Shown in pieces: positions 10,471 through 34,894 of a DNA stretch of 64,000 nt. The stretch is from a virus. The notes beneath the pieces are model-generated. The model was not told where the DNA came from. It did no database searches and was given only the letters and a program-made list of their open reading frames with translations. A program made the translations under genes and the position numbers. Every line of letters begins with the position of its first letter. The stretch's first letter is position 1. The stretch is taken from positions 1-64,000 of IMG/VR virus record IMGVR_UViG_3300028654_000014; one strand, written 5' to 3'.

Positions 10471-10591
10471 AATACTAACAATTGTAATATTTGAAAGTGG
10501 CGAAAAAATCTTTTGGTTTGGAAAATATTCAGTATATAAACAAGTTCCAGTGGCAGATGGAAAAGAAATAATAATTTTGAGGTATGAATGA
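10463..10591 (+). CDS. tagged micro-ORF MNRILTIV...IILRYE
   Basis: Hand-translated. Confidence 0.75.
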   Translation: MNRILTIVIFESGEKIFWFGKYSVYKQVPVADGKEIIILRYE

Positions 10592-11073
10592 AATTTTTAA
10601 AATTAACTAACGTTTCAATAGATTATAATTATCAAGTGCATCTTACAAATGGAAGTTCACAGATAACAAATCAAGGATTATTAGCAGGAGGAATTAATTC
10701 AGCATTTGGTGGAATTTATTCAGGGCCAGGCACTCAACAATATCAAAATGCACAACAATCTCAACAAGGATCAAATTATAACCAACAGCAACAACTCGGT
10801 ATCAACCAATCTATTTATAATCAATTACACCAATCACCAATGCAATCTTATATTAAAAAATCAGTAATGATTCCAATAGATAACATAAATTACTTCATAG
10901 AAGAGAAAATGAATGGTAATAATACAATAATACACTTTAAAACTCCATTTCCAAATGGTGATCAATTTCTTGGACCAACATATACCTTACATGTTGAAGA
11001 AACTATTGATATGATTGAGAAACAAATACATACCCAACAATTCAACAATAAAATGGATGAGTTATTAAAATAA
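10588..11073 (+). CDS. FlbD-like small domain with Q/G-rich insert and FxxKMD C-terminal tag
   Basis: MKFLKLT...IPIDNINYFIEE...TIIHF...VEETIDMI; ends QQFNNKMDELLK. Confidence 0.55.
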   Translation: MKFLKLTNVSIDYNYQVHLTNGSSQITNQGLLAGGINSAFGGIYSGPGTQQYQNAQQSQQGSNYNQQQQLGINQSIYNQLHQSPMQSYIKKSVMIPIDNINYFIEEKMNGNNTIIHFKTPFPNGDQFLGPTYTLHVEETIDMIEKQIHTQQFNNKMDELLK

Positions 11074-11076
11074 ACA

Positions 11077-11105
11077 TTGACAATGAAGATAATTAATAGT
11101 ATAAT
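11077..11105 (+). promoter_or_regulatory. consensus sigma70 promoter
   Basis: TTGACA-17-TATAAT. Confidence 0.8.
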
Positions 11106-11136
11106 ACAATATATAAGTAATTTAAGGAGCAAATTA

Positions 11137-11421
11137 ATGGCTAAGATGAAAAAACATGTAGATGAAGAGAAAGCAGTTGAAATGGAACAAGAAGTAGTTC
11201 AAAAAGAACAACCAGAAGCTCCTGTAGAAATATTGGATAGTTTTGCATTGGGAGTTGCAAAAGACAATGAATCAGGTCGATGGTTTGTTATTAAAATTCC
11301 TTTTAATATTAAAACAGGTCAAACAGGATCTCCTATAAAATTAGGTGAAGGAGATGATAGAAGTATTTGTCTCGAAAGATTTAGAATTGAAGCAGCTAAT
11401 ACTTTAATGGGAGAAGTTTAA
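11137..11421 (+). CDS. hypothetical protein
   Basis: AAGGAG SD before ATG 11137; the longer TTG start coincides with the -35 box. Confidence 0.7.
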   Translation: MAKMKKHVDEEKAVEMEQEVVQKEQPEAPVEILDSFALGVAKDNESGRWFVIKIPFNIKTGQTGSPIKLGEGDDRSICLERFRIEAANTLMGEV

Positions 11422-11597
11422 AATGAAACTATTTTTACCATCAATTTTATCACTATTAACTTCTGGAGCAATTGGATATTTTCTATGCGATTTAGCTTTA
11501 AAAGTTGATAAAAGAGAAACAACAATCATTGTATTACTAATAGTAATGAATATGATTTTAAAAAGTATTATATTTTCAAATGTAAAAGGAGATTCAA

Positions 11598-12125
11598 ATG
11601 TCGCAAAATAGTTTAATTGTAACAAGTGCAGAAAATGCTGAACTTTTTCAAGCGTTAGCAGCTGCGAAAAGAATAATTCAACCTGTTGTAAAGAAAGGTG
11701 AAAATCCTCATTTTAAATCAGCATTTGCAACTTTAGCAGATACTTTAGATGCAGTAGAAGGTCCACTTTTGGATCAAGGAATTCTACTAATACAACCAAA
11801 TTGTACAGATGGAGTTTCAAATTTTGTAACTACAAGACTTATTCATTTAAAAACTGGACAATTTATTGAAAGTTCTGTAAAATTGGAACTTGCTAAAACA
11901 AATATGCAAGAGATAGGAAGCGCAACAACTTATGCCAAGCGTCAAACTATTACATCACTCTTAGGTCTAAGAACAATAGATGATGATGCTGAAGCTTCAA
12001 TGAATCGTTCATCTTCAAATGGTAAAACCAATGTTACAAGAGGATCTTTTAAAAAAGAAGCTGATCGTAGTTCTGTAGCAGAGAAACAGATTAATGCAGC
12101 AGCAAGTGATGATTGGGATAATTAA
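11598..12125 (+). CDS. ERF-family single-strand annealing protein
   Basis: KGENPHFKS.FA.L.D, GSATTYAKR, DDDA motifs. Confidence 0.85.
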   Translation: MSQNSLIVTSAENAELFQALAAAKRIIQPVVKKGENPHFKSAFATLADTLDAVEGPLLDQGILLIQPNCTDGVSNFVTTRLIHLKTGQFIESSVKLELAKTNMQEIGSATTYAKRQTITSLLGLRTIDDDAEASMNRSSSNGKTNVTRGSFKKEADRSSVAEKQINAAASDDWDN

Positions 12126-12276
12126 TGATAGTAATTCTAATATCAATACTAATCATATCATTACCAATGATTATAATTAATCAATTAGAACCAGTTCCAG
12201 TAAAAGAAGATAAAGTAGCTAAAGATAATTGTAAAAATTGTAAATGCGATAAATGACCAAACCGTTGATTATTTAT

Positions 12277-12305
12277 TTGACAGTTTCAATATTATTTGGT
12301 ATAAT
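12277..12305 (+). promoter_or_regulatory. consensus sigma70 promoter
   Basis: TTGACA-17-TATAAT with extended -10 TG; lies inside a small membrane ORF. Confidence 0.7.
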
Positions 12306-12364
12306 ATCTTTAATAGGTTTGAATTATTTAAGAAAGATTGTTAAATTATTAGAAAGGAAAGATA

Positions 12365-13951
12365 ATGAAAAATAAATTACTAATTGGATCATTAGTATTA
12401 TTTGTAATTGCAACTGTTTTAGGAATTGTTTCAACAGCAGGTATTGATAATCAAAGAGAATTACTTAGAAGTTTCCATTTAGGAAGTACTTCTTTATTTC
12501 TAGGATTATTAGGAGTTGGAACATTAGTTATTGCAAAATTATGGAATGAAGATACTCAAATTTCAACATCTGATAAAAAGAAAATTGCAAAATGAAAAGA
12601 GTCGATAGAATTCAATTAAACACTTTAAGTAAACTTTTATTTGGTACTTCATCAAAATGGCAAAAATTGATGAAAGGTCAAACAAAAACAATGAAAGAAA
12701 CTTTAGAAGATGGATCTGAACGAAAGTTTCAAGGAACTCATTATTCTTCTCTTGAAGAGATCAAAAAACAAATGGATGATCTTTTCAAAGAGAAAGTTTT
12801 AAAGGAAGAGAAACAAAAAGAAGAAGCTAATAAAGTTACTGTTACAAGTGAAAATAAAGCAGTAGGAACAAGATTTGAAGAAGTAGTGAAAGAGGAAGAA
12901 AATGACGAATTTATCAGAACAAATTGAACCAGCACTTCCAACAGGTGAAGAAGTTGAAAAAGAACTTTTAAGACGAGAACAAGAAAATCCTCATATATTA
13001 GATAATCATGCAACATTTTTTGCATTGTATATTCCAAAACTCATGCAAATGTTAGATGGTATGAATAAAAAAGCTCTTTTAAGAGTCATTGAATTAGCAG
13101 TAAAACATCCAATTGAAGAAAGTGATAAAAAACTTCTAAGTGTATCAGAAAATAACGCTTTTAATACTTTAAATCAATTAATGACTTCAAAATATTCCAT
13201 GATTATTTATACAGGAATGGAAGAAATGGAACGTCAAGAAGCAGAAAAAGCAAAAGAAGTTAATATAGAATCAGTGATAGAAACAAGTTTTAACGGAGAT
13301 GAAAATGAGTCAAAATCTTAAAGCAATAGATGATACAGGATTGATTAGTAATTTAAATACATTAACAACAGGATCAGTACTTTTATCAAATAGTGTAAAT
13401 GGTGGAACTGGTGGTAATGGAATTAATTCTATAACCGGAGGTTTAGATTTAAATACTAATACGGGCAGTGGAATTGCAACAAATTCATGGTATGTTCCAA
13501 CAACTACATTAGCTTATAGTTATTGGTATCCAACATTACCAGTCCCAACAGTTTCAATTGATAAAGTTGAAAATGGATTTATAATTACAAAAGATAATAA
13601 AAGATTTGTAGCTAAAAAAGCTGAAGAAATTCTTAAATATTTAAAAGGAGAAGAAAAATGAGTGAAGTAAAAGCAAAAACTGTAAGATTGGGGACAATTC
13701 TTCAAACAGATGCAGAAAAAGGTCCCTTTATGATTTTGGGCAATAATAAAAACAAAGACCCAAAATATGATTATACAGTTCAAATTAGAGTTTTGCAAGG
13801 AAGTCCAAAAACTCCAGAAGAATTTAAAAAGGCTACAGTTTTGTATAGTGGAACTAATCCATTGGTTTATATGAATAAGCCACGAGGAGAAAATGTTCCA
13901 AAAATTGTAAAACATGAATTGGCTGTGCCTTTAAAATTAGTAGAAGATTAA
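12365..13951 (+). other. run of five coupled hypothetical genes (12365..12595, 12592..12927, 12902..13321, 13299..13661, 13658..13951)
   Basis: ORF track, overlapping start/stop codons. Confidence 0.65.
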
Positions 13952-13952
13952 T

Positions 13953-14228
13953 TTATATACGTAGTAAAACTACTTATAAAGTCCATTGAAAAGTGGAAGT
14001 TGTTTCTGAAAAGAACATAAACGTTAGCGAATGAAATAACTAACGTTAGGGTCTGTGAGTGCAAATCTCACATAAATCAGGAATGGGTAAATCGTTCGAG
14101 TCGATGGTCCTGATGTATATAATTTATCCCAGTAATTATTCAGTCACATGGAGTAATTACAAATACCTTATTCCTCCCCTCTAAGGTATTTCCTTTCAAA
14201 GTTGTGAACAAGCCGGAGGTAATCCGGC
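13953..14228 (+). ncRNA. candidate structured RNA (multi-branch, GAAA tetraloops, T-loop-like hairpins)
   Basis: Closing helix TTATATAC 13953-13960 / GTATATAA 14115-14122 encloses six stems; three more hairpins to 14228. Confidence 0.55.
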
Positions 14229-14250
14229 ATTAAACTAAGGGAGTGATTGA

Positions 14251-16170
14251 ATGATGTCTCAAAAATATGTTAGATTAACAAAACATTTTCAAGATAAGGG
14301 AATTTTAGTAAAACAAGAAGAAGTTTCCAGTCAAATTAAAGATAAGAACAAAGAACACTATCAAAGTACCTATTATTACAATGAAGAACATTTTAAAGAG
14401 TTTCAAAAAGTTGGTTCGATAAAAGGAATCAAAGATGTTACTACTAATCAAATTTGGTGGGATTTTGATTCTTCAGATTTAAAATTAGCCCGAAAAGATA
14501 CAATTGAACTTGTAAAGCGTTTAAATGATTATAAAATTACATCTGATCAATTAGAAATTTATTTCTCAGGAAATAAAGGATTTCATGTAATTATTAATGT
14601 TGATAAAGAAATCAATAGAAAACAAGTTGAAAACTTCTCAAGACGAGTGGCGAAAGATTTAAAAACATTTGATACAAGTCTTTATGATGAATCACAAGTT
14701 TTAAGAATTCCTGGCACAAAGCATCATAAAACTGAATACTTTAAAACTTCATTAACTCATGATGAATTATTAAATCTTAAAACCGCTGCCCTTTTAGAAA
14801 AAGCCAAAATTCCCCAACAAATAAAATCCTCACAAAAACTAACCCTCCCTGAAAAACTATTTGAAGTTGAAGAAGTAAAAGTTCAACCAGTTACTACAAC
14901 ATTTGACATAAGCGCAAAACCAAAAGGATGGAAGGGTTCAAAATTTGCCCTATTACAAGGATTCTATGGAGCGGGTGAAAGAAGTCAAGCAATGATGATA
15001 ATAGCTTCGACTTGTAGGGCTTTAGGATATGATGAATCCACAACTTACCATATGTGTCTAAGTTCTTTAGAAAAATCATGGGAAAAGAATGGAAAAGGTT
15101 CATTTGATGAAAATGAATTACAAACCAATATTATTAATCAAGTATTTGGAGAACATTGGAATGGAGGACAATATTCGGAAAAAAATGATATGTTCCTTCA
15201 GAAAAAGGCCGATGAGTTGGGAATCAGAGAAATAGCACCAACTTCAACCGTTAATATAAAGGGAGCTTTAAAACTCTTTAAAGGATACGCAAAAAATATT
15301 GATGAATTAACATTAAAAACTGGAATTCAAGAATTAGATGCAAAACAAAGAATAACAGTTGGTATGTCATGGGGAATAATTGCAGCCCCAGGAGTTGGAA
15401 AAACATCTTGTGCATTACAAATGTTACACGCAATGTCAAAAGCTGGGGAATTATGCGTTTATCTTTCATATGATATGTTTGCCCCACACGTTGTTCAAAA
15501 GATCATTCAAAAGCACTGGAAAGGTAATAATATTGAAGAAGTCTTTGAAAAATACAAAGCAGGAGATGAAAAATTTACAAAGGAAGTAGAAGAATTAATT
15601 GAAGTTGAATATCCTAATGTTGAATTTTGTTTTGAAAGTGGCCAATCAATTGATGATATAAAACAAACAATCAGAGATGCTGAACAAAAATGCGGTAAGA
15701 AATGTAAATTTGTAGTAGTAGATTATAATGAATTAGTTATTACAGATGTTTCAGATCCAACACAAAGTTCTAATAAAGTTGCTCAACAAATTAGAGCTTT
15801 GGCATCAAATGAACAAATTTGTATTCTATCACTATTTCAACCTAATAAACTCACCGGAGATCCTTCAGTTGAAATTAAATCATACCGAGCAGCAAAAGGT
15901 GGTTCAGGAATTGAACAATCTGTAAGTTTAATGCTTGGAATGTCCAGACCTGGATTTGACCCCCGCAGACCTGATGATGATAAATATGTATCATTAAATT
16001 GCGTTAAGAATCGAATGGGATCAATCTTTTATGTAGATTTATACTGGAATGGTTATGAAGGAATGGTCCGATCTTTAACAAATGTTGAGAAAGTTGAATT
16101 AAAAGAACTTAGAGCTGCAAGAGAAGCTGAAAAAAATGGAACAAAGTTAGGATTAAATGATGACTGGTGA
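14251..16170 (+). CDS. primase-helicase fusion (AEP primase-polymerase + DnaB-like SF4 helicase)
   Basis: WDFD, FSGNKGFH, RIPGT in the N-half; AAPGVGKT, VVVDY, KNRMG in the C-half. Confidence 0.85.
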   Translation: MMSQKYVRLTKHFQDKGILVKQEEVSSQIKDKNKEHYQSTYYYNEEHFKEFQKVGSIKGIKDVTTNQIWWDFDSSDLKLARKDTIELVKRLNDYKITSDQLEIYFSGNKGFHVIINVDKEINRKQVENFSRRVAKDLKTFDTSLYDESQVLRIPGTKHHKTEYFKTSLTHDELLNLKTAALLEKAKIPQQIKSSQKLTLPEKLFEVEEVKVQPVTTTFDISAKPKGWKGSKFALLQGFYGAGERSQAMMIIASTCRALGYDESTTYHMCLSSLEKSWEKNGKGSFDENELQTNIINQVFGEHWNGGQYSEKNDMFLQKKADELGIREIAPTSTVNIKGALKLFKGYAKNIDELTLKTGIQELDAKQRITVGMSWGIIAAPGVGKTSCALQMLHAMSKAGELCVYLSYDMFAPHVVQKIIQKHWKGNNIEEVFEKYKAGDEKFTKEVEELIEVEYPNVEFCFESGQSIDDIKQTIRDAEQKCGKKCKFVVVDYNELVITDVSDPTQSSNKVAQQIRALASNEQICILSLFQPNKLTGDPSVEIKSYRAAKGGSGIEQSVSLMLGMSRPGFDPRRPDDDKYVSLNCVKNRMGSIFYVDLYWNGYEGMVRSLTNVEKVELKELRAAREAEKNGTKLGLNDDW

Positions 16171-16483
16171 TAAAAATGAGAAAGATTTTGATACATTCTT
16201 TTTAGCTTTTAGTGGTCAACAAGTTACAATAACCACTTCTATAAATGCTAATATAAGCGTCCAAGATAATCATAGTCAAACGATTAATAACTTACCCTTG
16301 TATTATGAAGGTGTTTTAATGGATTATGATAATGAATATTATTATTTAGGTGATGGAAAAGAAGTTAATCAAGCTGTTAGAAAATCTTTAACCGCTCATA
16401 TTGTAGTTAGTCAACCGTCAACAATCTTCGATGATTTATTAAATAAAATACCATTCCCTAATAAAGAGGAAGATATTAATTGA
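16157..16483 (+). CDS. hypothetical protein
   Basis: ORF track; followed by hypothetical 16480..16773. Confidence 0.65.
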   Translation: MMTGDKNEKDFDTFFLAFSGQQVTITTSINANISVQDNHSQTINNLPLYYEGVLMDYDNEYYYLGDGKEVNQAVRKSLTAHIVVSQPSTIFDDLLNKIPFPNKEEDIN

Positions 16484-16769
16484 TGAATAAAGACATTAAC
16501 AATCTTTTAACACTTTTAGAAGTGACAATGATTAATGAAGAAAAGTCTGAATATTTGGAAGTTTCTTATCAAAATGGATTTGTTTATATTTTAAGTTCAA
16601 AAGAAGATTATAAGAATTATACAATAACTGAAAGGATAAAAGGGATATTTGAATTGTTAAAGTTTGAACATAATGACATTCTTTTACAGCATCCAGTAAT
16701 CGTCGAATGTTTTGATTCTTCAGAATTAGATGGGTTATTTTTAATGTATTCTAAAAAGGAATATATAAA

Positions 16770-17357
16770 ATGAGCAGACCAATTATAATATATAAAACAA
16801 AAATATGTAATATTTGTAAAAAGAGGAAGAATGTTGATAAATTTTACTCCAAATATAAATATGGAAAATATAAACATCAAAAAAGTTCACATTGTAGAAA
16901 ATGCGAAAAGTTTAGATTAACGGAAAAAGATAAAATATGGCTAAAAGAATATAGAAAAAAATATTATCCAAAATATTACAAAGAAAATATAAAAGAAATT
17001 CGAAAAAATAATCGCAAATATTATCATTTAAATAAAAAAGAAATTAGTAGAAAAAATAAAGAAAAATACAATAATGACCCAGAATTTAAGATTAGAATAA
17101 AATGTGTAAAATATAAAATTACTGTTGATGAATATAAAAAAAGATTAAAAAAACAAAATAATAAATGTGCAATATGTAAATTACCATCTAATTTATTTAA
17201 TAAAGAATTATTTATTGATCATTGTCACCTAACTGGTAAGTTTAGAGGATTTTTATGTGGAAATTGTAATTTAGGTATAGGTTATTTTAAGGATCGTAAA
17301 AAATTAATGTTATCTGCTATAAAATATTTAGAGAATAATAATGCTAAAACTTATTAA
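16770..17357 (+). CDS. endonuclease VII-like HNH (homing) endonuclease
   Basis: QNNKCAIC...IDHCHLTGKFRGFLCGNCNLGIG. Confidence 0.85.
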   Translation: MSRPIIIYKTKICNICKKRKNVDKFYSKYKYGKYKHQKSSHCRKCEKFRLTEKDKIWLKEYRKKYYPKYYKENIKEIRKNNRKYYHLNKKEISRKNKEKYNNDPEFKIRIKCVKYKITVDEYKKRLKKQNNKCAICKLPSNLFNKELFIDHCHLTGKFRGFLCGNCNLGIGYFKDRKKLMLSAIKYLENNNAKTY

Positions 17358-17760
17358 AGCTTATTTTAAAAAACGAAGGGATGATAATTATTATAATGCT
17401 ATGAAAAATAGTATTATAAGAAATATAATAGATGGTACTAATATTTTCCAAATTCCAGTAGATTTTAATGATCGGCTAAATAATGAACTTTCCTTAATAA
17501 AAACATATTACTTTAAAGAAGAAGGATTTAAGAATTTAAAGATATTATTAGTATTAAAAGATAAAGAACATAAACAATTTAATATCATTGACTTTTATTA
17601 CGGAAAAGAATATAATAAAGATTATATATTGATTTATAAAAGGAAATATAGTAGTAAAATATTTAATACTATACAAATACCAAAGACTTATTTAATTAGT
17701 AAAAAACAGCTGTTACAAATTGATTTTGATAGAAAAATGGATGAAGTGATAGATGATTGA
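17341..17760 (+). CDS. hypothetical protein with FxxKMD C-terminal tag
   Basis: ends QLLQIDFDRKMDEVIDD. Confidence 0.7.
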   Translation: MLKLIKAYFKKRRDDNYYNAMKNSIIRNIIDGTNIFQIPVDFNDRLNNELSLIKTYYFKEEGFKNLKILLVLKDKEHKQFNIIDFYYGKEYNKDYILIYKRKYSSKIFNTIQIPKTYLISKKQLLQIDFDRKMDEVIDD

Positions 17761-17962
17761 AGCTTTTTATTGTAATAGAGATGTTAGTAATAAAGGAAGT
17801 AGTGTTTTTATAAAAAAAGAATTAGAAGGATATTACTTTAGTTGGCGGCCTAAAGATTATTGGGATAAAGGAACAGGAACACAATATCATGATAGTACTT
17901 ATGAATCATTAATAGATTGGTATAAAAATAATAATTTCATCAAAGTTCTTGAATATGATTGA
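17753..17962 (+). CDS. tagged micro-ORF (ends KVLEYD)
   Basis: ORF track. Confidence 0.75.
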   Translation: MIEAFYCNRDVSNKGSSVFIKKELEGYYFSWRPKDYWDKGTGTQYHDSTYESLIDWYKNNNFIKVLEYD

Positions 17963-18149
17963 ATTAAAATATTACATACAAAATGATCATAGAAAAGATT
18001 TTCCAAGAATATGGAATACGTTAATTGTAAAAGGAGAAGTAACACATAGTTGTTATAATAGAGAAGATTGTTTTATTGGTCATTCTGCTGGATCTGTAAA
18101 TAAATGGAAAGAATATGGAAAATTTATTGATATATTAACTTATGATTGA
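17955..18149 (+). CDS. tagged micro-ORF MIELKYY...DILTYD
   Basis: ORF track; ATG 17955. Confidence 0.75.
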   Translation: MIELKYYIQNDHRKDFPRIWNTLIVKGEVTHSCYNREDCFIGHSAGSVNKWKEYGKFIDILTYD

Positions 18150-18324
18150 ATTAAAATATTACACAGAAGATACAAATAAAAATTGGATATTCAGAATAAA
18201 AAATGATAGGGTTCTTAATTATATGTATATTGAAAAGGAAGAATCATATTGGCATGTATGTGGTAATAATATAGATAATCATAAAGAAAATGGGAAAATA
18301 ATTGATATATTAACTTATGAATGA
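18142..18324 (+). CDS. tagged micro-ORF MIELKYY...DILTYE
   Basis: ORF track. Confidence 0.75.
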   Translation: MIELKYYTEDTNKNWIFRIKNDRVLNYMYIEKEESYWHVCGNNIDNHKENGKIIDILTYE

Positions 18325-19804
18325 AATATTATATGGTAAACAAGAATTACAAAAAATAGTATCAATAGAACCTTCAAATAGTTCTGTTGAAATTTTCATT
18401 CAAGATAATCAAGGAAATGTTAAATCAGAATTTGTTGAAAACCGTTCATGGATTTTAAGCCATTTTCCTCTAAAAGACTTTAAAAAACTCCAAGGTAATC
18501 TTTATTATCAATATGGTAAACAATTTAGAGAAAGAAACGAATTTCAAAAAGCTCGAAGCTATTTAAAAAACTCAGACATATTTTCAATTTATGACCCAAA
18601 AGAATCTTTCATGGTTCTAAAGGGTTATACTTATTTTAAAGGATTAAAACACCAAGATGTTACAATTCTTTCATTTGACATTGAAACTACAACAAAAGAT
18701 TTAAATGATCAATCTAAACTTCTACTAATATCCAATACATTTAGAAAAAACGGCATAATTACTAAAAAGCTATTCTCCTATGATGATTATAATGATGAAG
18801 GAGAAATGATTGAAGAATGGTGCAAATGGGTTAGAAAAATGGACCCAAGCATTATAACAGGTCATTATATTTTAGTATTTGATTTGGATTATATTCAATT
18901 CATAGCTAATAAATATAATGTTGCTTTAAAATTAGGCCGAGATGGTTCTAATATGAAAGTTAACAATTATGAATCACAATTTAGAAAAGATGGTTCACAA
19001 TCTTATTCATATTACAAACATTACATTTATGGCCGAGAAATTATTGATGGATACTTTTTAGCTTTAAAATATGATATTGGTAGAAAATATGATAATTATA
19101 AGTTAAAGAATATAATCAAACAAGAAGGATTAGAAAAACAAGGAAGAGTATTTTATGATGCTTCAAAAATCAGAGAGAATTATAAGAATCCTACCGAATG
19201 GGCTAAAATAAAAGAATATTGTATAGATGATTCTGATGATTCATTAGCAATATTTGATTTAATGAGTCCAGCATTATTTTATTCGGCGCAAATGATTCCC
19301 AAACCCTTTCAATTAATATCAGAATGCGCAACAGGTTCACAAATTAATTCAATTATGATGAGAAGTTATTTACAAAATGGTCATAGTTTACCAAGAGCTT
19401 CTGATCCTTTTCCTTTTAAAGGTGCAATATCAATAGGAAATTTTGGAATCTATAGAAATGTATTTAAAGTAGACGTTTCAAGTCTATATCCTTCAATAAT
19501 GATCCAATATGAAGTTTACGATAAAGATAAAGATCCTAATGGAAATTTCTTATATTTGGTAAAAAATCTAACGGAACAAAGACTTATAAATAAAAAATTA
19601 GCAAAAGAAACTGGAGATAATTATTATAAAGGATTAGAACAGAGCCAGAAAATTTTAGTGAATTCTGCTTACGGATTTTTAGCTGCGGCAGGTTTGATAT
19701 TTAATTCTCCTATTAAAGCTGATTTTATTACAGAAACTGGAAGAGATATATTAAAAAAATCTATTTTATGGGCAACAGGAAAAGAATATGACGAAAACAG
19801 TTGA
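18317..19804 (+). CDS. family B DNA polymerase, N-terminal part (3'-5' exonuclease, motifs A and B)
   Basis: SFDIET, FD, YCIDD, DVSSLYPS, KILVNSAYG; lacks the DTDS motif. Confidence 0.9.
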   Translation: MNEILYGKQELQKIVSIEPSNSSVEIFIQDNQGNVKSEFVENRSWILSHFPLKDFKKLQGNLYYQYGKQFRERNEFQKARSYLKNSDIFSIYDPKESFMVLKGYTYFKGLKHQDVTILSFDIETTTKDLNDQSKLLLISNTFRKNGIITKKLFSYDDYNDEGEMIEEWCKWVRKMDPSIITGHYILVFDLDYIQFIANKYNVALKLGRDGSNMKVNNYESQFRKDGSQSYSYYKHYIYGREIIDGYFLALKYDIGRKYDNYKLKNIIKQEGLEKQGRVFYDASKIRENYKNPTEWAKIKEYCIDDSDDSLAIFDLMSPALFYSAQMIPKPFQLISECATGSQINSIMMRSYLQNGHSLPRASDPFPFKGAISIGNFGIYRNVFKVDVSSLYPSIMIQYEVYDKDKDPNGNFLYLVKNLTEQRLINKKLAKETGDNYYKGLEQSQKILVNSAYGFLAAAGLIFNSPIKADFITETGRDILKKSILWATGKEYDENS

Positions 19805-20991: not shown

Positions 20992-21158
20992 TAAAAAAGA
21001 AACACACATTATACTATATGGTAGAATCATTCTTATATAATAGTGATTTTTTTGTAAATTATGATGATGGTGGATTTTTCTTACCCATTTCTGAAGATGA
21101 TGATCTTATTAAAATTGATCTAGATGAAAATGATGTAAAAATATTGGAATATAAATGA
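20988..21158 (+). CDS. tagged micro-ORF MIKKKHTLYY...DVKILEYK
   Basis: Hand-translated. Confidence 0.75.
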   Translation: MIKKKHTLYYMVESFLYNSDFFVNYDDGGFFLPISEDDDLIKIDLDENDVKILEYK

Positions 21159-21349
21159 AAAAGAAGAAATGGACTTTAATTTATGATAATAGACCTTCGG
21201 AATTATTAGTAGCTGTTGGAATTAAACCTTCTGCTGATAGTTTATTTATTTCATATAGTTATAATGAAACAATATTTTTTGATGATGGATTATTAAAAAT
21301 GAAACTTGGTAAATTAAAATCTGATGTTAAAATATTGGAATATAAATGA
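21155..21349 (+). CDS. tagged micro-ORF MKKKKWTLIY...DVKILEYK
   Basis: ORF track. Confidence 0.75.
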   Translation: MKKKKWTLIYDNRPSELLVAVGIKPSADSLFISYSYNETIFFDDGLLKMKLGKLKSDVKILEYK

Positions 21350-25592: not shown

Positions 25593-25689
25593 TGGATATT
25601 ATTGTTTTGATAGTGAACAATTTCATTATTTTCAATCACATTCTTCTTGCAAATCTTGTAATTTTGTATTAGAATATATAAATGATTAA
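25585..25689 (+). CDS. micro-ORF MINGYY...FVLEYIND containing a promoter
   Basis: Hand-translated; TTGCAA-17-TAGAAT at 25647-25675. Confidence 0.5.
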   Translation: MINGYYCFDSEQFHYFQSHSSCKSCNFVLEYIND

Positions 25690-25710
25690 CTAAACAAAAG
25701 GGAGAAATAG

Positions 25711-26775
25711 ATGAAGCCAGGAAATATTAAAGATGTAATGGATTTAGCAAAAAGAGCACGAGAAAGAGGTCATAGATTTAATCCATGTTTTGTAAGTCCT
25801 CCAGGAGTTGGAAAATCAGAAATCGTTCAACAATGGTGTAAAGAAAATGGTTACGATTTTATTGATATTAGATTAGCTTATAAAGAAGCTCCTGATATGA
25901 TCGGATTTCCACAACCAAGAGAAGTTACCGATAAAAATGGTACAGTAAGACAAGTTTGTTTATATTTTACCCCAGAAATTTGGCCAACAGAAGGTAAGGG
26001 AGTTATTTTCTTAGATGAAATTAACCGAGGTACAACTTCTGTTATGAATACTTGTATGCAACTTTTGACTGATAGAAAGATTGAAAAATACTCACTTCCT
26101 GAAGGATGGATAATTGCTGCCGCGATAAATCCTGAAAATGAACACAATGATGTAAATACAATGGATACAGCTTTAAAAGATCGTTTAGAAATCTTTGAAG
26201 TAAATTATGATAAGAAAACATTTGTATCCTTTATGAAAGATTCAAGCTGGGATAAAAATATCGTTATGTTTGTAGAATCAAATATGTGGTCATATTCCAA
26301 ACCAGAAGATGTTGGAGAAACAGCGGGAAATAAATATCTATCCCCAAGAACTTTAAGCAAATTAAATGCAGCTTTAAAATCTGATATTCCAAAAGATATG
26401 GAATTAGATTTCTATGAAGGAATTTTGGGTAAAAATGTCGGGAGAGCATTTTTCCAATTTATGAATGATGAACAACCAGTACTTTACAAAGATATTGTAA
26501 AGAATCCAGCTAAAGCATTTGAGAAGCTTAAAAGATTCAGTGATCCTGCAAAATACATGGCTGGACACATTTCTTTAACAATCAAAGATATTGTTGAAAA
26601 TCATGATATTGATGATGAATTGTTAGTAAAAGTAATTTTAAACATTCCAGCTGATAGTGGACCATCACTTGTAAGTGAATTGGAATTTAAAAGAAAAGAT
26701 CCAACTCTCTTAGATCGTTTGTTAAAAAATTATCCTGCTGTAAAGAAATACTTTAAGGATGTTTTGAATAAATAA
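25711..26775 (+). CDS. MoxR-like AAA+ ATPase
   Basis: PPGVGKS, IFLDEINR, AAINP, MDTALKDR, SPRT. Confidence 0.85.
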   Translation: MKPGNIKDVMDLAKRARERGHRFNPCFVSPPGVGKSEIVQQWCKENGYDFIDIRLAYKEAPDMIGFPQPREVTDKNGTVRQVCLYFTPEIWPTEGKGVIFLDEINRGTTSVMNTCMQLLTDRKIEKYSLPEGWIIAAAINPENEHNDVNTMDTALKDRLEIFEVNYDKKTFVSFMKDSSWDKNIVMFVESNMWSYSKPEDVGETAGNKYLSPRTLSKLNAALKSDIPKDMELDFYEGILGKNVGRAFFQFMNDEQPVLYKDIVKNPAKAFEKLKRFSDPAKYMAGHISLTIKDIVENHDIDDELLVKVILNIPADSGPSLVSELEFKRKDPTLLDRLLKNYPAVKKYFKDVLNK

Positions 26776-26819
26776 TGATTTTCATAGTGTATTTAAATAC
26801 GAGAGGGAGATTTTAAGAT

Positions 26820-28121
26820 ATGACTAAAACAGAGGAACTTTTACAGTCATGTATTTATAAGATAGTAAGGGATAATGCTTTTATTGGTGGTTTGTTACAA
26901 GAATTAACTTTTAAATTTAGTAATGAAGTACCAACAGCTGCGATTGGTTTTGATAAAAAGACCCAAAAGTATGAATTATACTTCAATCTTGACTTTTTTC
27001 AGAAAATGGAGAAGGAACAAAGAATTGCAGTATTAATGCATGAAATCCTTCATTTTCTTCATAAACATCTATTTCGATGGATGCAAATGAAAGTTGATGA
27101 AAAGGACCGATTTTTATGGAACATTGCAGCAGACATGGCCATAAACCAATACATTGAAAACCTCCCAAAAGGCTCTATAAGCATAGATAATTACAAAGAT
27201 GCTAAAGGACAGCCTTTTCCAAAATTCCAGCCCATGGAAGCCTATTACGATCTAATACAACAGAATAGAGAAGGAGATAAGACCAAAGGACAGGATTTAA
27301 AAGATCCTAATGGTGAACCTTCAAAAGATAAGAACGGAAATTCTATTGTTGATCCTAATGGAAAGCCTTATGATTCCAAAGGAACGGGCAATGAGGGATC
27401 AAATAAGGAAGAATTGGACAAATATACAGCAATGGATGAGCATAAATGGGAAGATCTTTCAGATGAAGAAAAAGAAAGAATGGCTAGAGAAGCTGAAAAG
27501 CTTATTAAACGAACCATTGAAAAAACAGCTTATAGTCATTCAAATATTCCAGGATATGTTGAAGATTTCTTAAAAGATTTAAGTGCATATTTAAGGAAAT
27601 TGAATTATAAAGCTATTTTAAGAAATGCAATAAAGAAAACAGTAATGAGTCAAGATAGAGAAAATTCATGGAAGAAACCTAATAAAAGATTTGGAGAAGT
27701 AGCCCCTGGAACTTCTTTAAGTAGAACTCCAAGAATTAATATGTATGTTGATACTTCAGGATCAATTTCTTATCAAGAACTTACAGAATTTTTAAGTATT
27801 ATTGATGGATTTTTAAAAGCCGGAAATAAAGATTGTAGATTAGTTTTATGGCATACAAATCCTTATTATAATAAGAAATATAAACTTAATAGTAAATTAG
27901 ATTCAAAAGTAGTTCAAGCAGGAGGAACAGATCCTCAACCTACTTTAGAATTGATTCAAAAAACTAGCCCCGATCTTTCTATTATTCTAACAGATGGATT
28001 TTATGATAAATCTAATATTAAATTACATAGTGATGTAATATGGATTATTAGTAAAACTGGAAATAAAGATCATCCAAATTCTCATATTGGGAAAACGATT
28101 CTTTTAGAAGGAATTAAGTGA
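26820..28121 (+). CDS. HExxH metallopeptidase-like + vWA domain protein (DUF2201-like)
   Basis: HEILH, NIAADMAIN; DTSGS MIDAS, GGT, LTDG. Confidence 0.85.
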   Translation: MTKTEELLQSCIYKIVRDNAFIGGLLQELTFKFSNEVPTAAIGFDKKTQKYELYFNLDFFQKMEKEQRIAVLMHEILHFLHKHLFRWMQMKVDEKDRFLWNIAADMAINQYIENLPKGSISIDNYKDAKGQPFPKFQPMEAYYDLIQQNREGDKTKGQDLKDPNGEPSKDKNGNSIVDPNGKPYDSKGTGNEGSNKEELDKYTAMDEHKWEDLSDEEKERMAREAEKLIKRTIEKTAYSHSNIPGYVEDFLKDLSAYLRKLNYKAILRNAIKKTVMSQDRENSWKKPNKRFGEVAPGTSLSRTPRINMYVDTSGSISYQELTEFLSIIDGFLKAGNKDCRLVLWHTNPYYNKKYKLNSKLDSKVVQAGGTDPQPTLELIQKTSPDLSIILTDGFYDKSNIKLHSDVIWIISKTGNKDHPNSHIGKTILLEGIK

Positions 28122-28216
28122 AAAAAAGTTTAATATGGATTCCTAAATTAGGAATTAGAAGATGTATAAGAGGTGATATGTTTAAATACGAAACTCTTAT
28201 ATTGGATTATGAATGA
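28118..28216 (+). CDS. tagged micro-ORF MKKSLIW...ETLILDYE
   Basis: Hand-translated, GTG start. Confidence 0.7.
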   Translation: MKKSLIWIPKLGIRRCIRGDMFKYETLILDYE

Positions 28217-28308
28217 AAAATTTAATTTGGTTGAATAATTTAAAATGTTTTATTTGGATTAAAAGAATAGGTGGTACACATGAAACTTTTATATTGGAAT
28301 ATAAATGA
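28213..28308 (+). CDS. tagged micro-ORF MKNLIW...ETFILEYK
   Basis: Hand-translated. Confidence 0.7.
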   Translation: MKNLIWLNNLKCFIWIKRIGGTHETFILEYK

Positions 28309-28631
28309 TAGTAATTTTAAAAGATGAAGTAGTAGGAAAATCTTTACGTATTCCCATAATGATTGGAATTTCGGTATCAGTAAAATTTACATTAACTTCA
28401 ATAGCTAACTCTCAAATTATTGATTGTGAATTTTTAAGAGGAAAAGAATATAAAGCAAAATTAAAAAAAGATCCATTAATAGGAGATGAATTTTATTTTA
28501 TAAAACCAGAAAATTCTTCTAAAATATTTAAATTTGATAAATATGTTATTGATAAACACTTTTATATTAAAACAGAAAAACAAATACATCAAGAGAAATT
28601 TGATAAGAAAATGGATAAGATACTGAAATGA
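28305..28631 (+). CDS. hypothetical protein with FxxKMD C-terminal tag
   Basis: ends QIHQEKFDKKMDKILK. Confidence 0.7.
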   Translation: MIVILKDEVVGKSLRIPIMIGISVSVKFTLTSIANSQIIDCEFLRGKEYKAKLKKDPLIGDEFYFIKPENSSKIFKFDKYVIDKHFYIKTEKQIHQEKFDKKMDKILK

Positions 28632-28825
28632 TTCAATTATATTATATAGATAATACATGGTATGAAAATACTTACGAATTCATTGATTTTTCTAATGGTA
28701 GGAATTTATTGAACAAAAGTAAAAAAGAGATGTCCAGATTTGTTTATAAAGATTATAACGATACTGTTAGAGTTAATAGTGATTATATGTATAAATTAAA
28801 GCTTATTTTTGAAATTAGTGCTTGA
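28628..28825 (+). CDS. micro-ORF MIQLYY...LIFEISA (degenerate family member)
   Basis: ORF track. Confidence 0.6.
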   Translation: MIQLYYIDNTWYENTYEFIDFSNGRNLLNKSKKEMSRFVYKDYNDTVRVNSDYMYKLKLIFEISA

Positions 28826-28850
28826 TTTTTGATTAAAGATTTGATATAAT
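28822..28850 (+). promoter_or_regulatory. sigma70-type promoter
   Basis: TTGATT-17-TATAAT with extended -10. Confidence 0.65.
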
Positions 28851-28879
28851 GAATATTATTAACTAATAAGGAGATAATA

Positions 28880-29179
28880 ATGGAAACAGTAACATTTCAC
28901 GATTCAAAGAATAATATCACTTTTACGATTAAGAGTGAATTTGTAGAAACTTGTCCCGAATTTAAAACCACTCCCACGAAAGAATTAGTAGAAAAGCACA
29001 ATATCTTTAAATTCTTTCACAATCCTAATGGTCCATCAGTAACTGACCATAAAACCAACACTATTACATATTTTTTAAATGGTCATTTGGTTGAAGGTGA
29101 AGAATTGGAAAAGATTAAACATCGTGAACAATTCAATGGTAAAATGGATAAAGTTTTAGCAGATGAATCAGCTTCATAA
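28880..29179 (+). CDS. hypothetical protein (paralog of 2076..2354) with FxxKMD tag
   Basis: AAGGAG SD; ends HREQFNGKMDKVLADESAS. Confidence 0.75.
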   Translation: METVTFHDSKNNITFTIKSEFVETCPEFKTTPTKELVEKHNIFKFFHNPNGPSVTDHKTNTITYFLNGHLVEGEELEKIKHREQFNGKMDKVLADESAS

Positions 29180-29182
29180 AAT

Positions 29183-29338
29183 ATGAATAGATTATTTATT
29201 GTAAATGAACCATTAACTTATAAATGGCATTTAGAAAATAATCATGGAGTTCATTATTTCAGTAATGATAAAGTATTAGTTAAGTATGCTGTAGTTATTG
29301 ATTATAGTAAAGGAATATATATTTGTATTTATGATTGA
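29183..29338 (+). CDS. tagged micro-ORF MNRLFIV...YICIYD
   Basis: Hand-translated; coupled to hypothetical 29331..29552. Confidence 0.7.
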   Translation: MNRLFIVNEPLTYKWHLENNHGVHYFSNDKVLVKYAVVIDYSKGIYICIYD

Positions 29339-29548
29339 TCTAGATGAGTATAAAAATAAGAAGAAGCTCAAAGATATTGTAAAAGATCTTGAAGATTGTA
29401 AAATTAAACTTACAGGATCTTTAAATCTTTTAGAAGTTCATAAGAAATATATTCCTATAATGGAATCGATAAGTGTTTTACATAATAGTCGAACTCTTAT
29501 AGAAATTCATTTAAACAAGTACAAGAATTTACTAGAGAAAGAATTAGA

Positions 29549-29896
29549 ATGAATTGGAAAAGCTTTTATAAAAGAATTCCTAAACAAGTTAAAGTAGGTC
29601 AAAATACCTATGAGGTTGTTTGGAACAAAGGTTTTTCCCGCGATAAAAAACAATTAGGGGAAACAAGATTCTTTAACGAGAATCCGCAAATTGTTATTAA
29701 TTTAAATCAACCGATAGAAGAAGCTGTTCATACTTATTTTCATGAACTTTTACACATATTTAGTGAAGAATATGGTGCAAGATTGACAGAAAATCAAGTA
29801 ATAGTTCTAGAGCAGGGACTAAAGGACATTCTAGCCCCTAATAATATATTTACCAAAGGAGTCAAAAGTGATACGACCAAACCAAGAAAACGGTGA
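29549..29896 (+). CDS. small HExxH metallopeptidase-like protein
   Basis: TYFHELLH. Confidence 0.6.
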   Translation: MNWKSFYKRIPKQVKVGQNTYEVVWNKGFSRDKKQLGETRFFNENPQIVINLNQPIEEAVHTYFHELLHIFSEEYGARLTENQVIVLEQGLKDILAPNNIFTKGVKSDTTKPRKR

Positions 29897-30860
29897 GATA
29901 TTAAAGGCTTACGTCCAACTAGTTCAAACAACAGGAAGGTTTCCAAATTGTAGGGAAGTAGAAAGATTAATCACAAGTGATAGGCAAGTTAGAAAACATT
30001 TTGGAGGATATACAGCTTTAAAAGAAACAGTAATTAAATTTCATCCAGAACTGTTAGAATTTGATCAAACACATGAAAATGAAGCTAAAGTATTAGTATT
30101 TGATATTGAAACTGCTCCTATAACAGCTCACGTTTGGGGATTATGGGAAAATAATGTATCATTGAATCAAATAGTTAAAGATTGGCATGTTTTAAGCTGG
30201 AGCGCAAAATGGTTAGGAAATCAAGAGATACTATACAAAGATCAAAGAAAAAATAAGAATGTAGAAGATGATACTGAAATATTAAAAGGTATCTGGAAAT
30301 TATTAGATGAAGCAGATGTTGTAATTACCCAAAATGGTAAGAGTTTTGATGTTAAGAAACTTAATGCTCGATTTGCTTTAAAAGGAATGAAACCGCCAAG
30401 TAGTTTTAGACACATTGATATTTGTCGCGTGGCTAAAAAACATTTTGGATTTTCAAGTCATAAATTAGAATATATGACCGATAAATTATGTAAGAAATAT
30501 AAGAAGTTAAAGCATAAGAAATTCCAAGGCCATGAATTATGGACCCAATGTTTAGCTGGTAATTTAAAAGCTTGGAAAGAGATGGAAAAGTATAATAAAT
30601 ATGATGTATTATCATTAGAAGAATTGTATTATATTTTAATTCCCTGGGACAATACCATTAACTTTGATATTTATACAAATAAAGAAGAAAATATTTGTAA
30701 ATGTGGAAGTAAGAAATTTGTTAAAAAAGGATTTTATTACACTGCTTCTTCAAAATATCAGAGATATCAATGTATTAAATGTTATGCAGAATCAAGGGAT
30801 AATATTAATTTATTACCAAGTCATAAGAAGGATTCTTTGAAACGTGGCATTACAAGGTAA
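29868..30860 (+). CDS. RNase H-like (DnaQ-type) exonuclease with C-terminal Zn ribbon
   Basis: VFDIET, QNGKSFD, YNKYDV, CKCGS...CIKC. Confidence 0.8.
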   Translation: MIRPNQENGEILKAYVQLVQTTGRFPNCREVERLITSDRQVRKHFGGYTALKETVIKFHPELLEFDQTHENEAKVLVFDIETAPITAHVWGLWENNVSLNQIVKDWHVLSWSAKWLGNQEILYKDQRKNKNVEDDTEILKGIWKLLDEADVVITQNGKSFDVKKLNARFALKGMKPPSSFRHIDICRVAKKHFGFSSHKLEYMTDKLCKKYKKLKHKKFQGHELWTQCLAGNLKAWKEMEKYNKYDVLSLEELYYILIPWDNTINFDIYTNKEENICKCGSKKFVKKGFYYTASSKYQRYQCIKCYAESRDNINLLPSHKKDSLKRGITR

Positions 30861-31150: not shown

Positions 31151-31204
31151 ATTAATATTAGTACTTTCATTTTTATTATTACTTGTAACTATTTTGTATA
31201 GAAG

Positions 31205-32513: not shown

Positions 32514-32542
32514 TTGACAAAGATAAAAGAATTTGTTATACT
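32514..32542 (+). promoter_or_regulatory. sigma70-type promoter
   Basis: TTGACA-17-TATACT with extended -10. Confidence 0.7.
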
Positions 32543-32842
32543 AGTGATAATAGAAAACAAGTTCAATATTTTAAAAAATCTATTGAAGCAAATAATAAAA
32601 ACCTTAAAATTGTAAAACTAACAGGAGAAATAAAATGACCAAATACGCCGTATCAGAAGAGTCCCTCAATTCTATTCTAAACTATCTAGCATCAAGACCT
32701 TTTGCTGAAGTTTATAAAATTGTACCACTTCTTCAAGTTCCAAATGTAGAACTATTGGCACAAGAAGCTCAAGCAGAAGCATCTGAAGTATCTGAAGTAT
32801 TGGATAGTCAAGAATCAGCATCATAATGATCGGAGGGGATAA

Positions 32843-33178
32843 ATGTCGGGAATTAAGCATGATTCTGAAAAAGAACCATTAGATCTTTTACCACCAGAAG
32901 CTTTATTTGAGATAGGAAGAGTTTTAGCTGCCGGAAAGAAAAAATATGGCACAGCAAATTGGGCCAAGGGAATTACAATTTCCAGACTTCTGGCAGCTTC
33001 TTTAAGACATATCTTTCAATTTTTAAAAGGTGAAGATTATGATAAAGAAACTAAAACACTTCATATTGCAAATGCTGCTTGTAATTTAATGTTTGCGATT
33101 TGGATGATGAAAAATAGACCTGACCTAGATGATCGTTGGATCAAAGGAGTTAAAAATGGCAAGAAAAAAGGCAAATAA
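32843..33178 (+). CDS. dATP/dGTP diphosphohydrolase-domain protein (DUF5664-like)
   Basis: KHDSEK..LDLLP, GKKKYG..NW.KG, ASLRH, GEDYD.ET..LHIA.A.CN. Confidence 0.75.
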   Translation: MSGIKHDSEKEPLDLLPPEALFEIGRVLAAGKKKYGTANWAKGITISRLLAASLRHIFQFLKGEDYDKETKTLHIANAACNLMFAIWMMKNRPDLDDRWIKGVKNGKKKGK

Positions 33179-33501
33179 ATATGGATGGAGTGATAATCCT
33201 TTAATTCTAATTAAACAGTTAGAAAAAGAAATGATTCCTGATATTAAAGCTGGATTAAAATTAAATCCTAAAACAATCAAGAATCTACAAAAAATAGATG
33301 AGATCTTTAAAAAAGGATTAAAAAATGGTAAGAAAAAAAGATAATACATTAAAACTTATGAAAAAAGTTGGTAAAGATTTAGATATAGTATTAAAAAATA
33401 AACATAAATTAAATCCTAGTACATTAAAGAATTTTAAAAAGATTGATTCTTTATTTGAAGATTTATTTAAAGATATTGATTCACTTGGAAAAAAGAAATG
33501 A
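33156..33501 (+). other. two tandem paralogous small basic ORFs (33156..33344, 33325..33501)
   Basis: Both contain KLNP.T.KN..KID..F. Confidence 0.65.
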
Positions 33502-33794
33502 TAACAAACGAGTATCTAAAAGGATACATAAACGCTCTAGATAATATTAAATCTATTGTAAATACTTACAAAATTGATTCAAATAATAATCATTCACTAG
33601 AAGCTTTTAATGATGTTTTAAATTATATTGAACAAGTAAGAAATAATTACAAACAATTAGTAAAGGAATTAAACGAGAAGAATGATTAATTTGAATGAAG
33701 CTCTTATGTATTTTTTTAAACTTTCAATATTATTTTTCATAAGTTCAATTGTTTTATCAGTAATATTTCACAAATTAACAAAGAGGATTAAACG

Positions 33795-34232
33795 ATGCAA
33801 CTAAAAGTTAAGAAAACAGATTCAACTGCTTACCCTTTGGAATATAAAACAGAAGGATCAGCAGCTTTTGATTTAACAAGCATTGAAGAAGTTACTATTA
33901 CATCAGGAGAAACAAAAGCAGTCAGAACAGGGTGGTCTTTCGAAGTTCCTCCAGGTTTTGAACTAGAAATTAGACCAAGATCAGGACTTTCTTTAAGTTC
34001 TAATATTAGAATCAGTAATTCTCCTGGTACTATTGATTCTGATTTTAGAGGAGAGGTTAAAATTATTGTAGATCTTCTAATGAAAAGATTTCCTGAAACA
34101 TATACAATAGTCAAAGGACAAAGAATTGCCCAAGCTCTTTTAAAGAAGGTTGAACAAGCAGAAATTGTAGAGATAGAAGAACTTTCTGAAACTGAAAGAG
34201 GAACTGGTGGATTTGGAAGTACAGGAAAATGA
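33795..34232 (+). CDS. dut: trimeric dUTPase
   Basis: GSAAFDL, RPRSG, PGTIDSDFRGE, RIAQ, RGTGGFGSTG. Confidence 0.95.
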   Translation: MQLKVKKTDSTAYPLEYKTEGSAAFDLTSIEEVTITSGETKAVRTGWSFEVPPGFELEIRPRSGLSLSSNIRISNSPGTIDSDFRGEVKIIVDLLMKRFPETYTIVKGQRIAQALLKKVEQAEIVEIEELSETERGTGGFGSTGK

Positions 34233-34316
34233 TCCAATCTTTTGGTCAAGTCTTATTTCTATTCCTAGCATTTTTAATGATTATATTCATTCCCGATTCA
34301 TTTAAAAGGACAACAG

Positions 34317-34601
34317 ATGGCAAAGACACGTCATGCAAAACCAGACGAGTTCCAAAAGGAACAAATAAGAAATCTAAGAAAACAATTAAAACAAAGAGAT
34401 CAAAAAATAAGACAGTTAGAAAAACTTCTAGGTTATAATCAAAATAGAGATGAATCTAAAAAGGATTCAGTAATAGAAGAATTAAATGTATGTGAGCATT
34501 GTGGAAAAGGGTTTGTAGTTGAAACTGTTTTTGAAGGAATTAAAAGGAAGTTTATAAGCTGTACAGTGTGCGATTATAAATCTAGGGCAATCAAAATATG
34601 A
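34317..34601 (+). CDS. coiled-coil + Zn-ribbon hypothetical protein
   Basis: CEHCG...CTVC. Confidence 0.65.
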   Translation: MAKTRHAKPDEFQKEQIRNLRKQLKQRDQKIRQLEKLLGYNQNRDESKKDSVIEELNVCEHCGKGFVVETVFEGIKRKFISCTVCDYKSRAIKI

Positions 34602-34894
34602 ACGATTTAAAGAATCTTAAAACTCTAGAATATCTATTAAAAGATAAAAACTACTTTGGATATAAATTTTATACTGTTTTTAGACATATTGAATATGATA
34701 GTTATGAAATAACTTTTCTTAATGATGAAAATAAATATTTTAGAATTCAATTATGTCATGGATTAATTTTAGGTATGGAATACAATAATTTAATAGGATA
34801 TATTGATAATATGGTCCATAGTTCCTCAGATTTTAAAAAACTCGCTCATAATCAACAATTTATGAACAAATTTGATAAGATGTTACATGAGTAA
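34598..34894 (+). CDS. hypothetical protein with FxxK(M/F)D C-terminal tag
   Basis: ends LAHNQQFMNKFDKMLHE. Confidence 0.7.
   Translation: MNDLKNLKTLEYLLKDKNYFGYKFYTVFRHIEYDSYEITFLNDENKYFRIQLCHGLILGMEYNNLIGYIDNMVHSSSDFKKLAHNQQFMNKFDKMLHE

Follow-up and report, generated by a model that had tools for sequence, protein, structure and literature searches.

The window analysed here, a 64-kb stretch of DNA, is the first part of the 82-kb genome (82,221 bp) of an uncultured soil phage. Exactly five of its open reading frames, all on the plus strand, end in the pattern K-x2-H-x3-F-x2-K-[MF]-D-x-h-[LI], which is located 1-6 residues ahead of the stop codon (Table 1). A previous sequence-only reading had described a C-terminal tag on these five proteins; the ORFs and their motifs do exist, but the shared module is longer than had been noted, comprising about 25 residues with the consensus h-h-x-S-E-K-E-x-H-N-x-x-F-N-x-K-M-[DE]-E-L-L-K, and the otherwise near-invariant His is replaced by Leu in p2, whose tail is the most deviant of the five. 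The same reading had placed a micro-ORF directly beside each gene, and a micro-ORF ending in ILEYE or a similar sequence indeed adjoins every one of them. Scanning all six frames of the 82,221-bp genome gave no sixth copy of the tail, and in a profile search of the ORFs with a tail HMM the five members scored 48-60 bits, as compared to 8.8 bits for the next ORF. When each of the 327 ORFs of at least 40 aa was shuffled, the mean number of C-terminal matches was 0.0135, with a maximum of one in 2000 shuffles, versus the five observed.

Table 1. Tail-bearing genes, adjoining micro-ORFs and the two neighbouring genes in the window.
Feature	Position	Strand	Product	Tail helix
Micro-ORF at p1	10463-10591
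p1	10588-11073	+	161 aa	~10993-11067
p2	17341-17760	+	139 aa	~17683-17751
Micro-ORF at p2	17753-17962
MoxR-like AAA+ ATPase	25711-26775	+	PF07728, 32 bits
DUF2201 protein	26820-28121	+	PF13203, 79.8 bits; PF09967, 50.3 bits
Micro-ORF at p3	28213-28308
p3	28305-28631	+	108 aa	~28557-28625
p4	28880-29179	+	99 aa, core member	~29090-29158
Micro-ORF at p4	29183-29338
p5	34598-34894	+	98 aa	~34817-34885
Micro-ORF at p5	34872-35057

A DNA-pattern scan identified G001, a distant syntenic relative of 87.6 kb, which carries 24 tail genes in overlapping tandem arrays. The motif is C-terminal in all 24, a strong enrichment that agrees with what the sequence-only reading had expected of relatives, and these members are separated from the remaining ORFs by a clear gap (20 bits and more versus 7.6 bits for the next ORF). 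Within the arrays, the genes overlap by 4 nt. Since four of the five window proteins (p1, p3, p4 and p5) each have their own, different body homologue in G001, the tail has long been retained on distinct bodies. Residues 86-161 of p1, a protein with a Q/N-rich N-terminal half, resemble the G001 protein encoded at 49269-49577 (34% identity over 77 aa), which itself matches FlbD (PF06289) with 26.3 bits at a cut-off of 24.7, while p1 is without a Pfam match. The G001 product of 41228-41548 aligns to residues 42-108 of p3, and the body of p5 is homologous to that of 41545-41823, the last two genes occupying equivalent positions in their genomes. For p4, a G001 orthologue at 44% identity adds to 11 further orthologues at 59-83%. 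No homologue of p2, whose gene shares 17 nt with the end of an HNH gene, was found anywhere searched, and the ESM Atlas gave no usable match. The tail genes of G001 fill genomic slots that are held by ILEYE micro-ORFs in our phage; G001 has no ILEYE ORFs, which adds one observation to the earlier idea of an address system parallel to that of ILEYE. BLAST of the micro-ORFs against the tail family gave nothing significant. A genome-specific 'dialect' of the tail (D or E at +5, K at +9), such as would be expected with a co-evolving reader, is weak, since the tails are 0.45-0.47 identical within a genome and still 0.41 identical between genomes; this is a point against a common partner.

Searches of viral and genome contigs with the tail or p4 alignments revealed no related loci. 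When 5.8 billion proteins were searched with the tail profile, through a word index that may overlook some, the matches were confined to the two phages and the p4 orthologues. Among the matches listed from a DNA-pattern scan of bacterial genomes (at least 120) there was no convincing member, and a second pattern scan of IMG/VR recovered G001 again, the only other match being an internal look-alike in a 6.6-kb contig (L082). Against 1.84 billion representatives, p3 found only itself and a spurious repeat lipoprotein. The five proteins yielded nothing usable in Pfam (E up to 1) or PHROGs, the tail profile had no match among PDB sequences, and in the literature the tail strings were not found and concept searches gave no relevant result. 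The sequencing runs listed included no RNA data set.

The proposal that the tag is an amphipathic helix is borne out by structure prediction. AlphaFold2 modelled the 29-sequence tail alignment as one continuous helix (residues 17-41, pLDDT 94-98) with the invariant K, H, F, K, M, L and L on one face, and a helical wheel places all strongly conserved residues inside a 140-degree arc. As 0 to 7 variable residues follow the motif in the 29 tails, no free carboxylate at a constant position is required. The helix is also the best-conserved part of the p4 orthologues, with mean pairwise identities of 86% in the helix, 65% for the body and 17% past the motif. The AlphaFold2 model of full-length p4 was poor (pLDDT 63), and a wide structural search with it by VIA gave no neighbours, all Z values being below 3. 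The five genes thus belong to a clade-specific multigene family that encodes small accessory proteins in the replication/early region of the phage, and whose members have the helix in common and not the body. We infer that the conserved face is the contact site for an external partner common to the members, and with moderate confidence we regard the tail as a portable interaction helix that is read by one such putative partner. On this reading, the variable, mostly beta-rich bodies would serve different functions, whereas through the common helix a single partner could bind, hold, process or place each of them.

Several other explanations were weighed. Most family genes overlap the start of the next gene and their conserved residues are confined to the final ~20 codons, and thus the conservation might reflect a signal in DNA or RNA that serves the next gene, or an action of the nascent peptide inside the ribosome, rather than a property of the mature protein. 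However, the codons at conserved residues follow genome usage (Leu at +8 is encoded by five different codons, and TTT:TTC for F is 24:5), which shows selection on the peptide rather than on the DNA. Moreover, tail DNA aligns poorly (62% mean column identity, in genomes of 26-30% GC), the distance from motif to stop varies from 0 to 7 codons, and the conserved positions recur with the spacing of a helix face. The population variants of p1 are both synonymous, one of them within the codon of the invariant Phe. This explanation is therefore largely refuted, and we attach hardly any weight to it. A more serious, if unlikely, alternative is that all members form a single fast-diverging paralogue family with one small beta-plus-helix fold, the helix being its conserved structural and functional core and not a portable tag; the bodies would seem unrelated only because they are short and evolve fast. 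The helix comes directly after the last strand of the body with no flexible linker, and its N-terminal half is conserved only as a pattern, and it may thus pack on its own body as an element of the fold. Similarly, the 4-nt overlaps in the tandem arrays, neighbouring paralogues that are 42-45% identical, a like beginning (M-K-Y-K-F-N-K-E) in several G001 members, and a Gly-turn beta-hairpin seen by eye right before the helix in many members, a layout shared with FlbD-like proteins, are all in line with such a family. Because tandem duplication clearly occurs and the body alignments are shallow, common descent of all bodies is possible. In contrast, the lengths range from 64 to 162 aa, and bodies stripped of their tails gave only few BLAST pairs and hhalign probabilities of at most 2.5% between the seven body groups; the dissimilarity claimed earlier thus holds at the level of detectable homology, and the five did not prove to be full-length homologues. 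Single members match different families: FlbD above the Pfam cut-off, DUF6501 just below it, and MORN_2 (PF07661) as a weak lead, the latter from p4, which has no Pfam match and only weak ESM Atlas leads (feature score 0.86, TM 0.53). In addition, H, F, K, M and L stay exactly the same even though their supposed packing partner changes wholly, and four body types are stable in two distant phages.

Among readings that accept the helix as a separate element, it might serve oligomerisation, the members forming homo- or hetero-oligomers instead of docking on a different protein. The ~3-4-3-4 spacing of the conserved stripe over 4.5 turns and the presence of many paralogues with the same helix in one cell would suit this role, but two Lys and a His within the stripe would make a poor coiled-coil core and the strictly conserved part spans only ~16 residues; we consider oligomerisation quite improbable. 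An address of a known type appears improbable as well, whether a degradation tag by which a host or phage AAA+ protease would clear early proteins at a set time, or a capsid-loading signal for injection. The C-terminal position on a large number of small proteins from the early region, the genes for two AAA+ ATPases and a metallopeptidase close by, and a weak match of one G001 member to the polyvalent-protein domain LPD3 (20.1 bits, under the cut-off) would be in line with it; yet the very end varies in length and sequence, unlike carboxylate-read tags such as ssrA, the genes are grouped with replication genes while the structural genes lie on the other strand, and no resemblance to known degrons or targeting peptides was found.

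If the tail is a portable interaction helix, a speculative candidate for its reader is the neighbouring pair of the MoxR ATPase and the DUF2201 protein, the latter combining a putative zinc metallopeptidase domain (HEILH) with a vWA-like domain that has a MIDAS-like motif (DTSGS..TDG). This pair is kept in three of three genomes (this phage, L001 and G001), in all of which p4 lies at most 1.3 kb downstream of the DUF2201 gene, although this closeness may reflect general synteny only. According to a published proposal (PMC7159879), vWA domains serve to capture peptides, while small proteins that diverge fast but keep their C-terminal peptide are substrates of zincin peptidases. Here, the ligand of the MIDAS site could be the conserved acidic residue of K-M-[DE]. 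Thus, it might be speculated that the tail is the ligand of a phage-encoded handling machine in which the vWA domain captures the helix through this residue, MoxR remodels or releases the client, and the zinc peptidase might clip it, so that 5 to 24 accessory proteins would be controlled; the ILEYE micro-ORFs would be a second set of clients that has replaced the tail family slot by slot in the lineage of this phage. We put this scenario forward as a distinctly doubtful one.

Phage genomes are filled with small early genes of no known function, and a shared terminal helix offers a handle on many of them together. A single bait peptide could recover the common partner and show how the phage organises its whole set of accessory proteins. 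Should the partner be the phage's own MoxR/vWA-peptidase module, a function would be assigned to a widespread, unexplained phage module. Furthermore, the exchange of two tag-defined families between related phages, in identical genomic slots, illustrates the turnover of such gene sets.

Several known systems resemble the arrangement in part. FlbD/SwrD (PF06289) similarly has a beta-hairpin followed by a C-terminal helix, but its profile stops short of the conserved H..F..KM..LL, and other members are without a match. As in the case of clamp- or hub-binding C-terminal peptides (QL[SD]LF, the PIP box, the tails of T4 gp43/gp33/gp55 and the acidic tails of T7), where one hub reads a short peptide on many replication-linked proteins, the tail might be recognised on many proteins by one partner; however, none of the 29 tails fits QL[SD]LF or Q-x2-[LIM]-x2-[FY][FY], the tail is longer and helical, and the window has no recognised clamp gene. 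The capsid-targeting sequence of T4 internal proteins and the C-terminal cargo-loading peptides of encapsulins likewise address unlike proteins to one destination by a short terminal peptide. The former, however, is N-terminal, cleaved by the prohead protease and encoded by late genes, whereas our tail is C-terminal and belongs to an early/replication block, and encapsulin peptides have other motifs. Poxvirus ankyrin-repeat proteins with PRANC/F-box-like modules are also a viral multigene family with variable N-terminal parts and a shared C-terminal module, which in poxviruses plugs into a host machine; in contrast to the three-helix F-box, the module is here a single helix, the bacterial host has no SCF ligase, the sequences are not similar, and PRANC/F-box gave no Pfam match in the five window proteins (E up to 1) or in 30 family members (E up to 0.1). 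With regard to the vWA-MoxR peptide-processing systems (Kaur, Burroughs, Iyer and Aravind 2020, PMC7159879), the tail consensus fits none of the FxSxx, RxD, acidic or FtsH-associated types and is a 25-residue helix instead, 5 to 24 precursors per genome are found rather than one, the setting is a lytic-type phage genome rather than a bacterial conflict island, and no radical-SAM partner was seen. The likeness to these systems lies in small, fast-diverging proteins whose C-terminal peptide is conserved, and in a zinc metallopeptidase and a MoxR/vWA pair encoded near them, as is the case at the present locus.

The five small ORFs that the sequence-only reading had credited with a shared C-terminal tag (p1 to p5, see table) are real, and in each of them F-x2-K-[MF]-D-x2-[LIVM] lies 1-6 residues ahead of the stop codon. 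Similarly, a micro-ORF ending in ILEYE or a similar sequence adjoins all five genes, as had been described, with stop and start codons mostly overlapping. The five C-terminal motif matches compare with a mean expectation of 0.0135 upon shuffling of each ORF, and a profile derived from the tails of p1 to p5 gives these proteins 48-60 bits, the next ORF reaching 8.8 bits. No sixth copy was detected in the 82,221-bp genome using a looser pattern in all six frames. The window covers the first 64 kb of this genome, which has a GC content of 30%. Up to about 40 kb its genes lie on the + strand, and those farther along are encoded on the - strand.

Tail genes (p1-p5), the candidate partner genes and the split polymerase gene
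Feature	Genome	Position	Strand	Remark
p1	window phage	10588-11073	+	
p2	window phage	17341-17760	+	
p3	window phage	28305-28631	+	
p4	window phage	28880-29179	+	
p5	window phage	34598-34894	+	
MoxR-like ATPase	window phage	25711-26775	+	conserved; with the DUF2201 protein the most concrete, if unlikely, candidate partner
DUF2201 protein	window phage	26820-28121	+	HEILH zinc site; vWA-like domain with DTSGS..TDG MIDAS-like motif
Family B polymerase, split	window phage	18317-20991		
Family B polymerase, split	G001	46767-49276		L074:6767-9276

Among the five, p4 has 11 orthologues in public assemblies (59-83% identity), in which the helix has a mean pairwise identity of 86%, versus 65% for the body and 17% for the residues past the motif. 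One orthologue is encoded on L001, a piece of the 82.5-kb contig LDNN01000002.1, which is syntenic with window positions 14-40 kb and carries ILEYE-type micro-ORFs, while p2, p3 and p5 are absent from it. The stretch 26820-30860 occurs in rhizosphere metagenomes of 2019, with a word share of at least 0.2 in 13 runs or more. Scanning IMG/VR with a degenerate tail DNA pattern yielded three matches in a single genome, G001, which is complete (87,572 bp, direct terminal repeats, 31% GC) and shares 72 ORFs with the window phage in the same order at about 23-83% identity; the two phages thus belong to one clade, in which they are only distantly related. The nearest named phage, based on the major capsid protein, is a Silvanigrella aquatica phage (29% identity). 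A tail profile search of G001 identified 24 small ORFs of 64-162 aa on one strand, scoring 20-48 bits versus 7.6 for the next ORF. The motif resides at the very C-terminus of all 24, and thus the C-terminal enrichment on which the earlier proposal had staked itself was indeed observed in a relative. Among 5.8 billion proteins, the tail profile matched only those of the window phage, G001 and the p4 orthologues. A stretch resembling the p4 tail, EHREQFKSKMENLLKE, occurs mid-way in a 130-aa ORF of a microvirus-sized 6.6-kb record (IMGVR_UViG_3300038393_000233; L082:2740, - strand); it is not C-terminal, and the resemblance may be due to chance.

An alignment of 29 family tails revealed that the shared module is longer than originally written. 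It begins with a hydrophobic stretch conserved in pattern, followed by a frequent Ser-Glu-Lys-Glu helix cap and then, counted from the Phe as position 0, by K(-7), H(-4), F(0), K(+3), M(+4), D/E(+5), L/F(+7), L(+8) and K(+9). AlphaFold2 on this alignment predicted a single helix of 25 residues (pLDDT 94-98), and a poor model of full-length p4 also finishes in a long helix. On a helical wheel, every strongly conserved residue falls inside an arc of 140 degrees. There is a weak genome-specific dialect: tail identity is 0.45-0.47 within genomes versus 0.41 between them, and position +5 is D in all five tails of the window phage and mostly E in G001.

Selection acts on the tail peptide rather than on a DNA signal, since the conserved-residue codons of the 29 tails match genome-wide usage (TTT:TTC for Phe and AAA:AAG for Lys, each 24:5), tail DNA aligns poorly (mean column identity of 62%, the genome being very AT-rich), and the only two p1 variants in four rhizosphere metagenome runs, where the phage population is nearly clonal (window 10400-29400), are both synonymous, one of them in the invariant Phe codon. 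Moreover, the near-invariant tail Leu is encoded by five different codons. The 0 to 7 variable residues that follow the motif speak against a tag whose terminal carboxylate is recognised at a fixed place, as well as against ribosome arrest linked to the stop codon. With regard to the bodies, the claim that they are dissimilar held: full-length homology among the five was not found, only a few pairs of tail-less bodies being linked by BLAST, and profile-profile comparison of seven body groups gave probabilities of 2.5% or less. Single members match FlbD (above the Pfam cut-off), DUF6501 (just under it) and LPD3 (weakly); for p4, MORN-variant leads came solely from the ESM Atlas, and for p2 no relative was found in protein databases or the ESM Atlas. 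All bodies may still descend from a common ancestor, given the shallowness of the alignments and the clear signs of tandem duplication. Four of the five proteins (p1, p3, p4 and p5) have a G001 counterpart of their own, with which the body aligns, p5 and its counterpart occupying the same genomic position; thus, at least four tail-bearing body types are older than the split of the two phages.

The most likely reading is that the helix is a portable interaction module by which one partner would handle many different small proteins: particular residues persist along one face of the helix, whereas the remaining sequence varies, a pattern expected from a common external ligand. The most concrete candidate partner is the MoxR/DUF2201-vWA pair. 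It has been proposed that vWA domains capture peptides, and zincin peptidases beside vWA-MoxR pairs have been described as acting on small precursors that diverge fast except for a conserved C-terminal peptide (Kaur et al. 2020, PMC7159879). The DUF2201 protein has an intact HExxH (HEILH), which, like its MIDAS-like DTSGS..TDG motif, is also present in the L001 orthologue, and p4 lies at most 1.3 kb downstream of the DUF2201 gene in all three genomes. We regard this pair as an improbable partner, however, because the motif fits no type of Kaur et al. and the proximity of the genes may simply result from synteny.

ILEYE micro-ORF arrays of the window phage (20988-22790 and others) and L001 sit where G001 (pieces L074 and L075) has tail-family arrays, for example at both flanks of a GT9 glycosyltransferase gene. 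Strict ILEYE micro-ORFs number 24 in the window phage, whereas G001 lacks ILEYE micro-ORFs, and sequence comparison of the two families revealed no similarity. The polymerase gene is split in all three genomes, the split holding an HNH gene in the window phage and L001 and a 71-aa tail-family gene in G001; in addition, the last 17 nt of a free-standing HNH endonuclease gene overlap p2 (16770-17760). Thus, HNH, micro-ORF and tail-family genes use common insertion slots. The p3 slot is occupied in L001 by a body-less open frame of 30 codons with a perfect tail (L001:9610-9702; ..EMHNQEFNEKMDKLLE-stop), which overlaps, in a different reading frame, a truncated HNH-like ORF (9462-9662) at the 3' end of the latter. 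This open frame could be what is left of a recently disrupted family gene, or could encode a free 15-residue tail peptide from an internal ATG.

The tail has no match in Pfam, PHROGs, PDB or the literature. Close in logic are the FxSxx-type precursors of vWA-MoxR systems, although the tail motif fits none of the published types, as well as poxvirus PRANC/F-box proteins, T4 and encapsulin targeting peptides, and clamp-binding tails, from each of which the family differs in at least one tested feature. While the family itself is undescribed, a terminal address peptide common to diverse proteins is a known principle.
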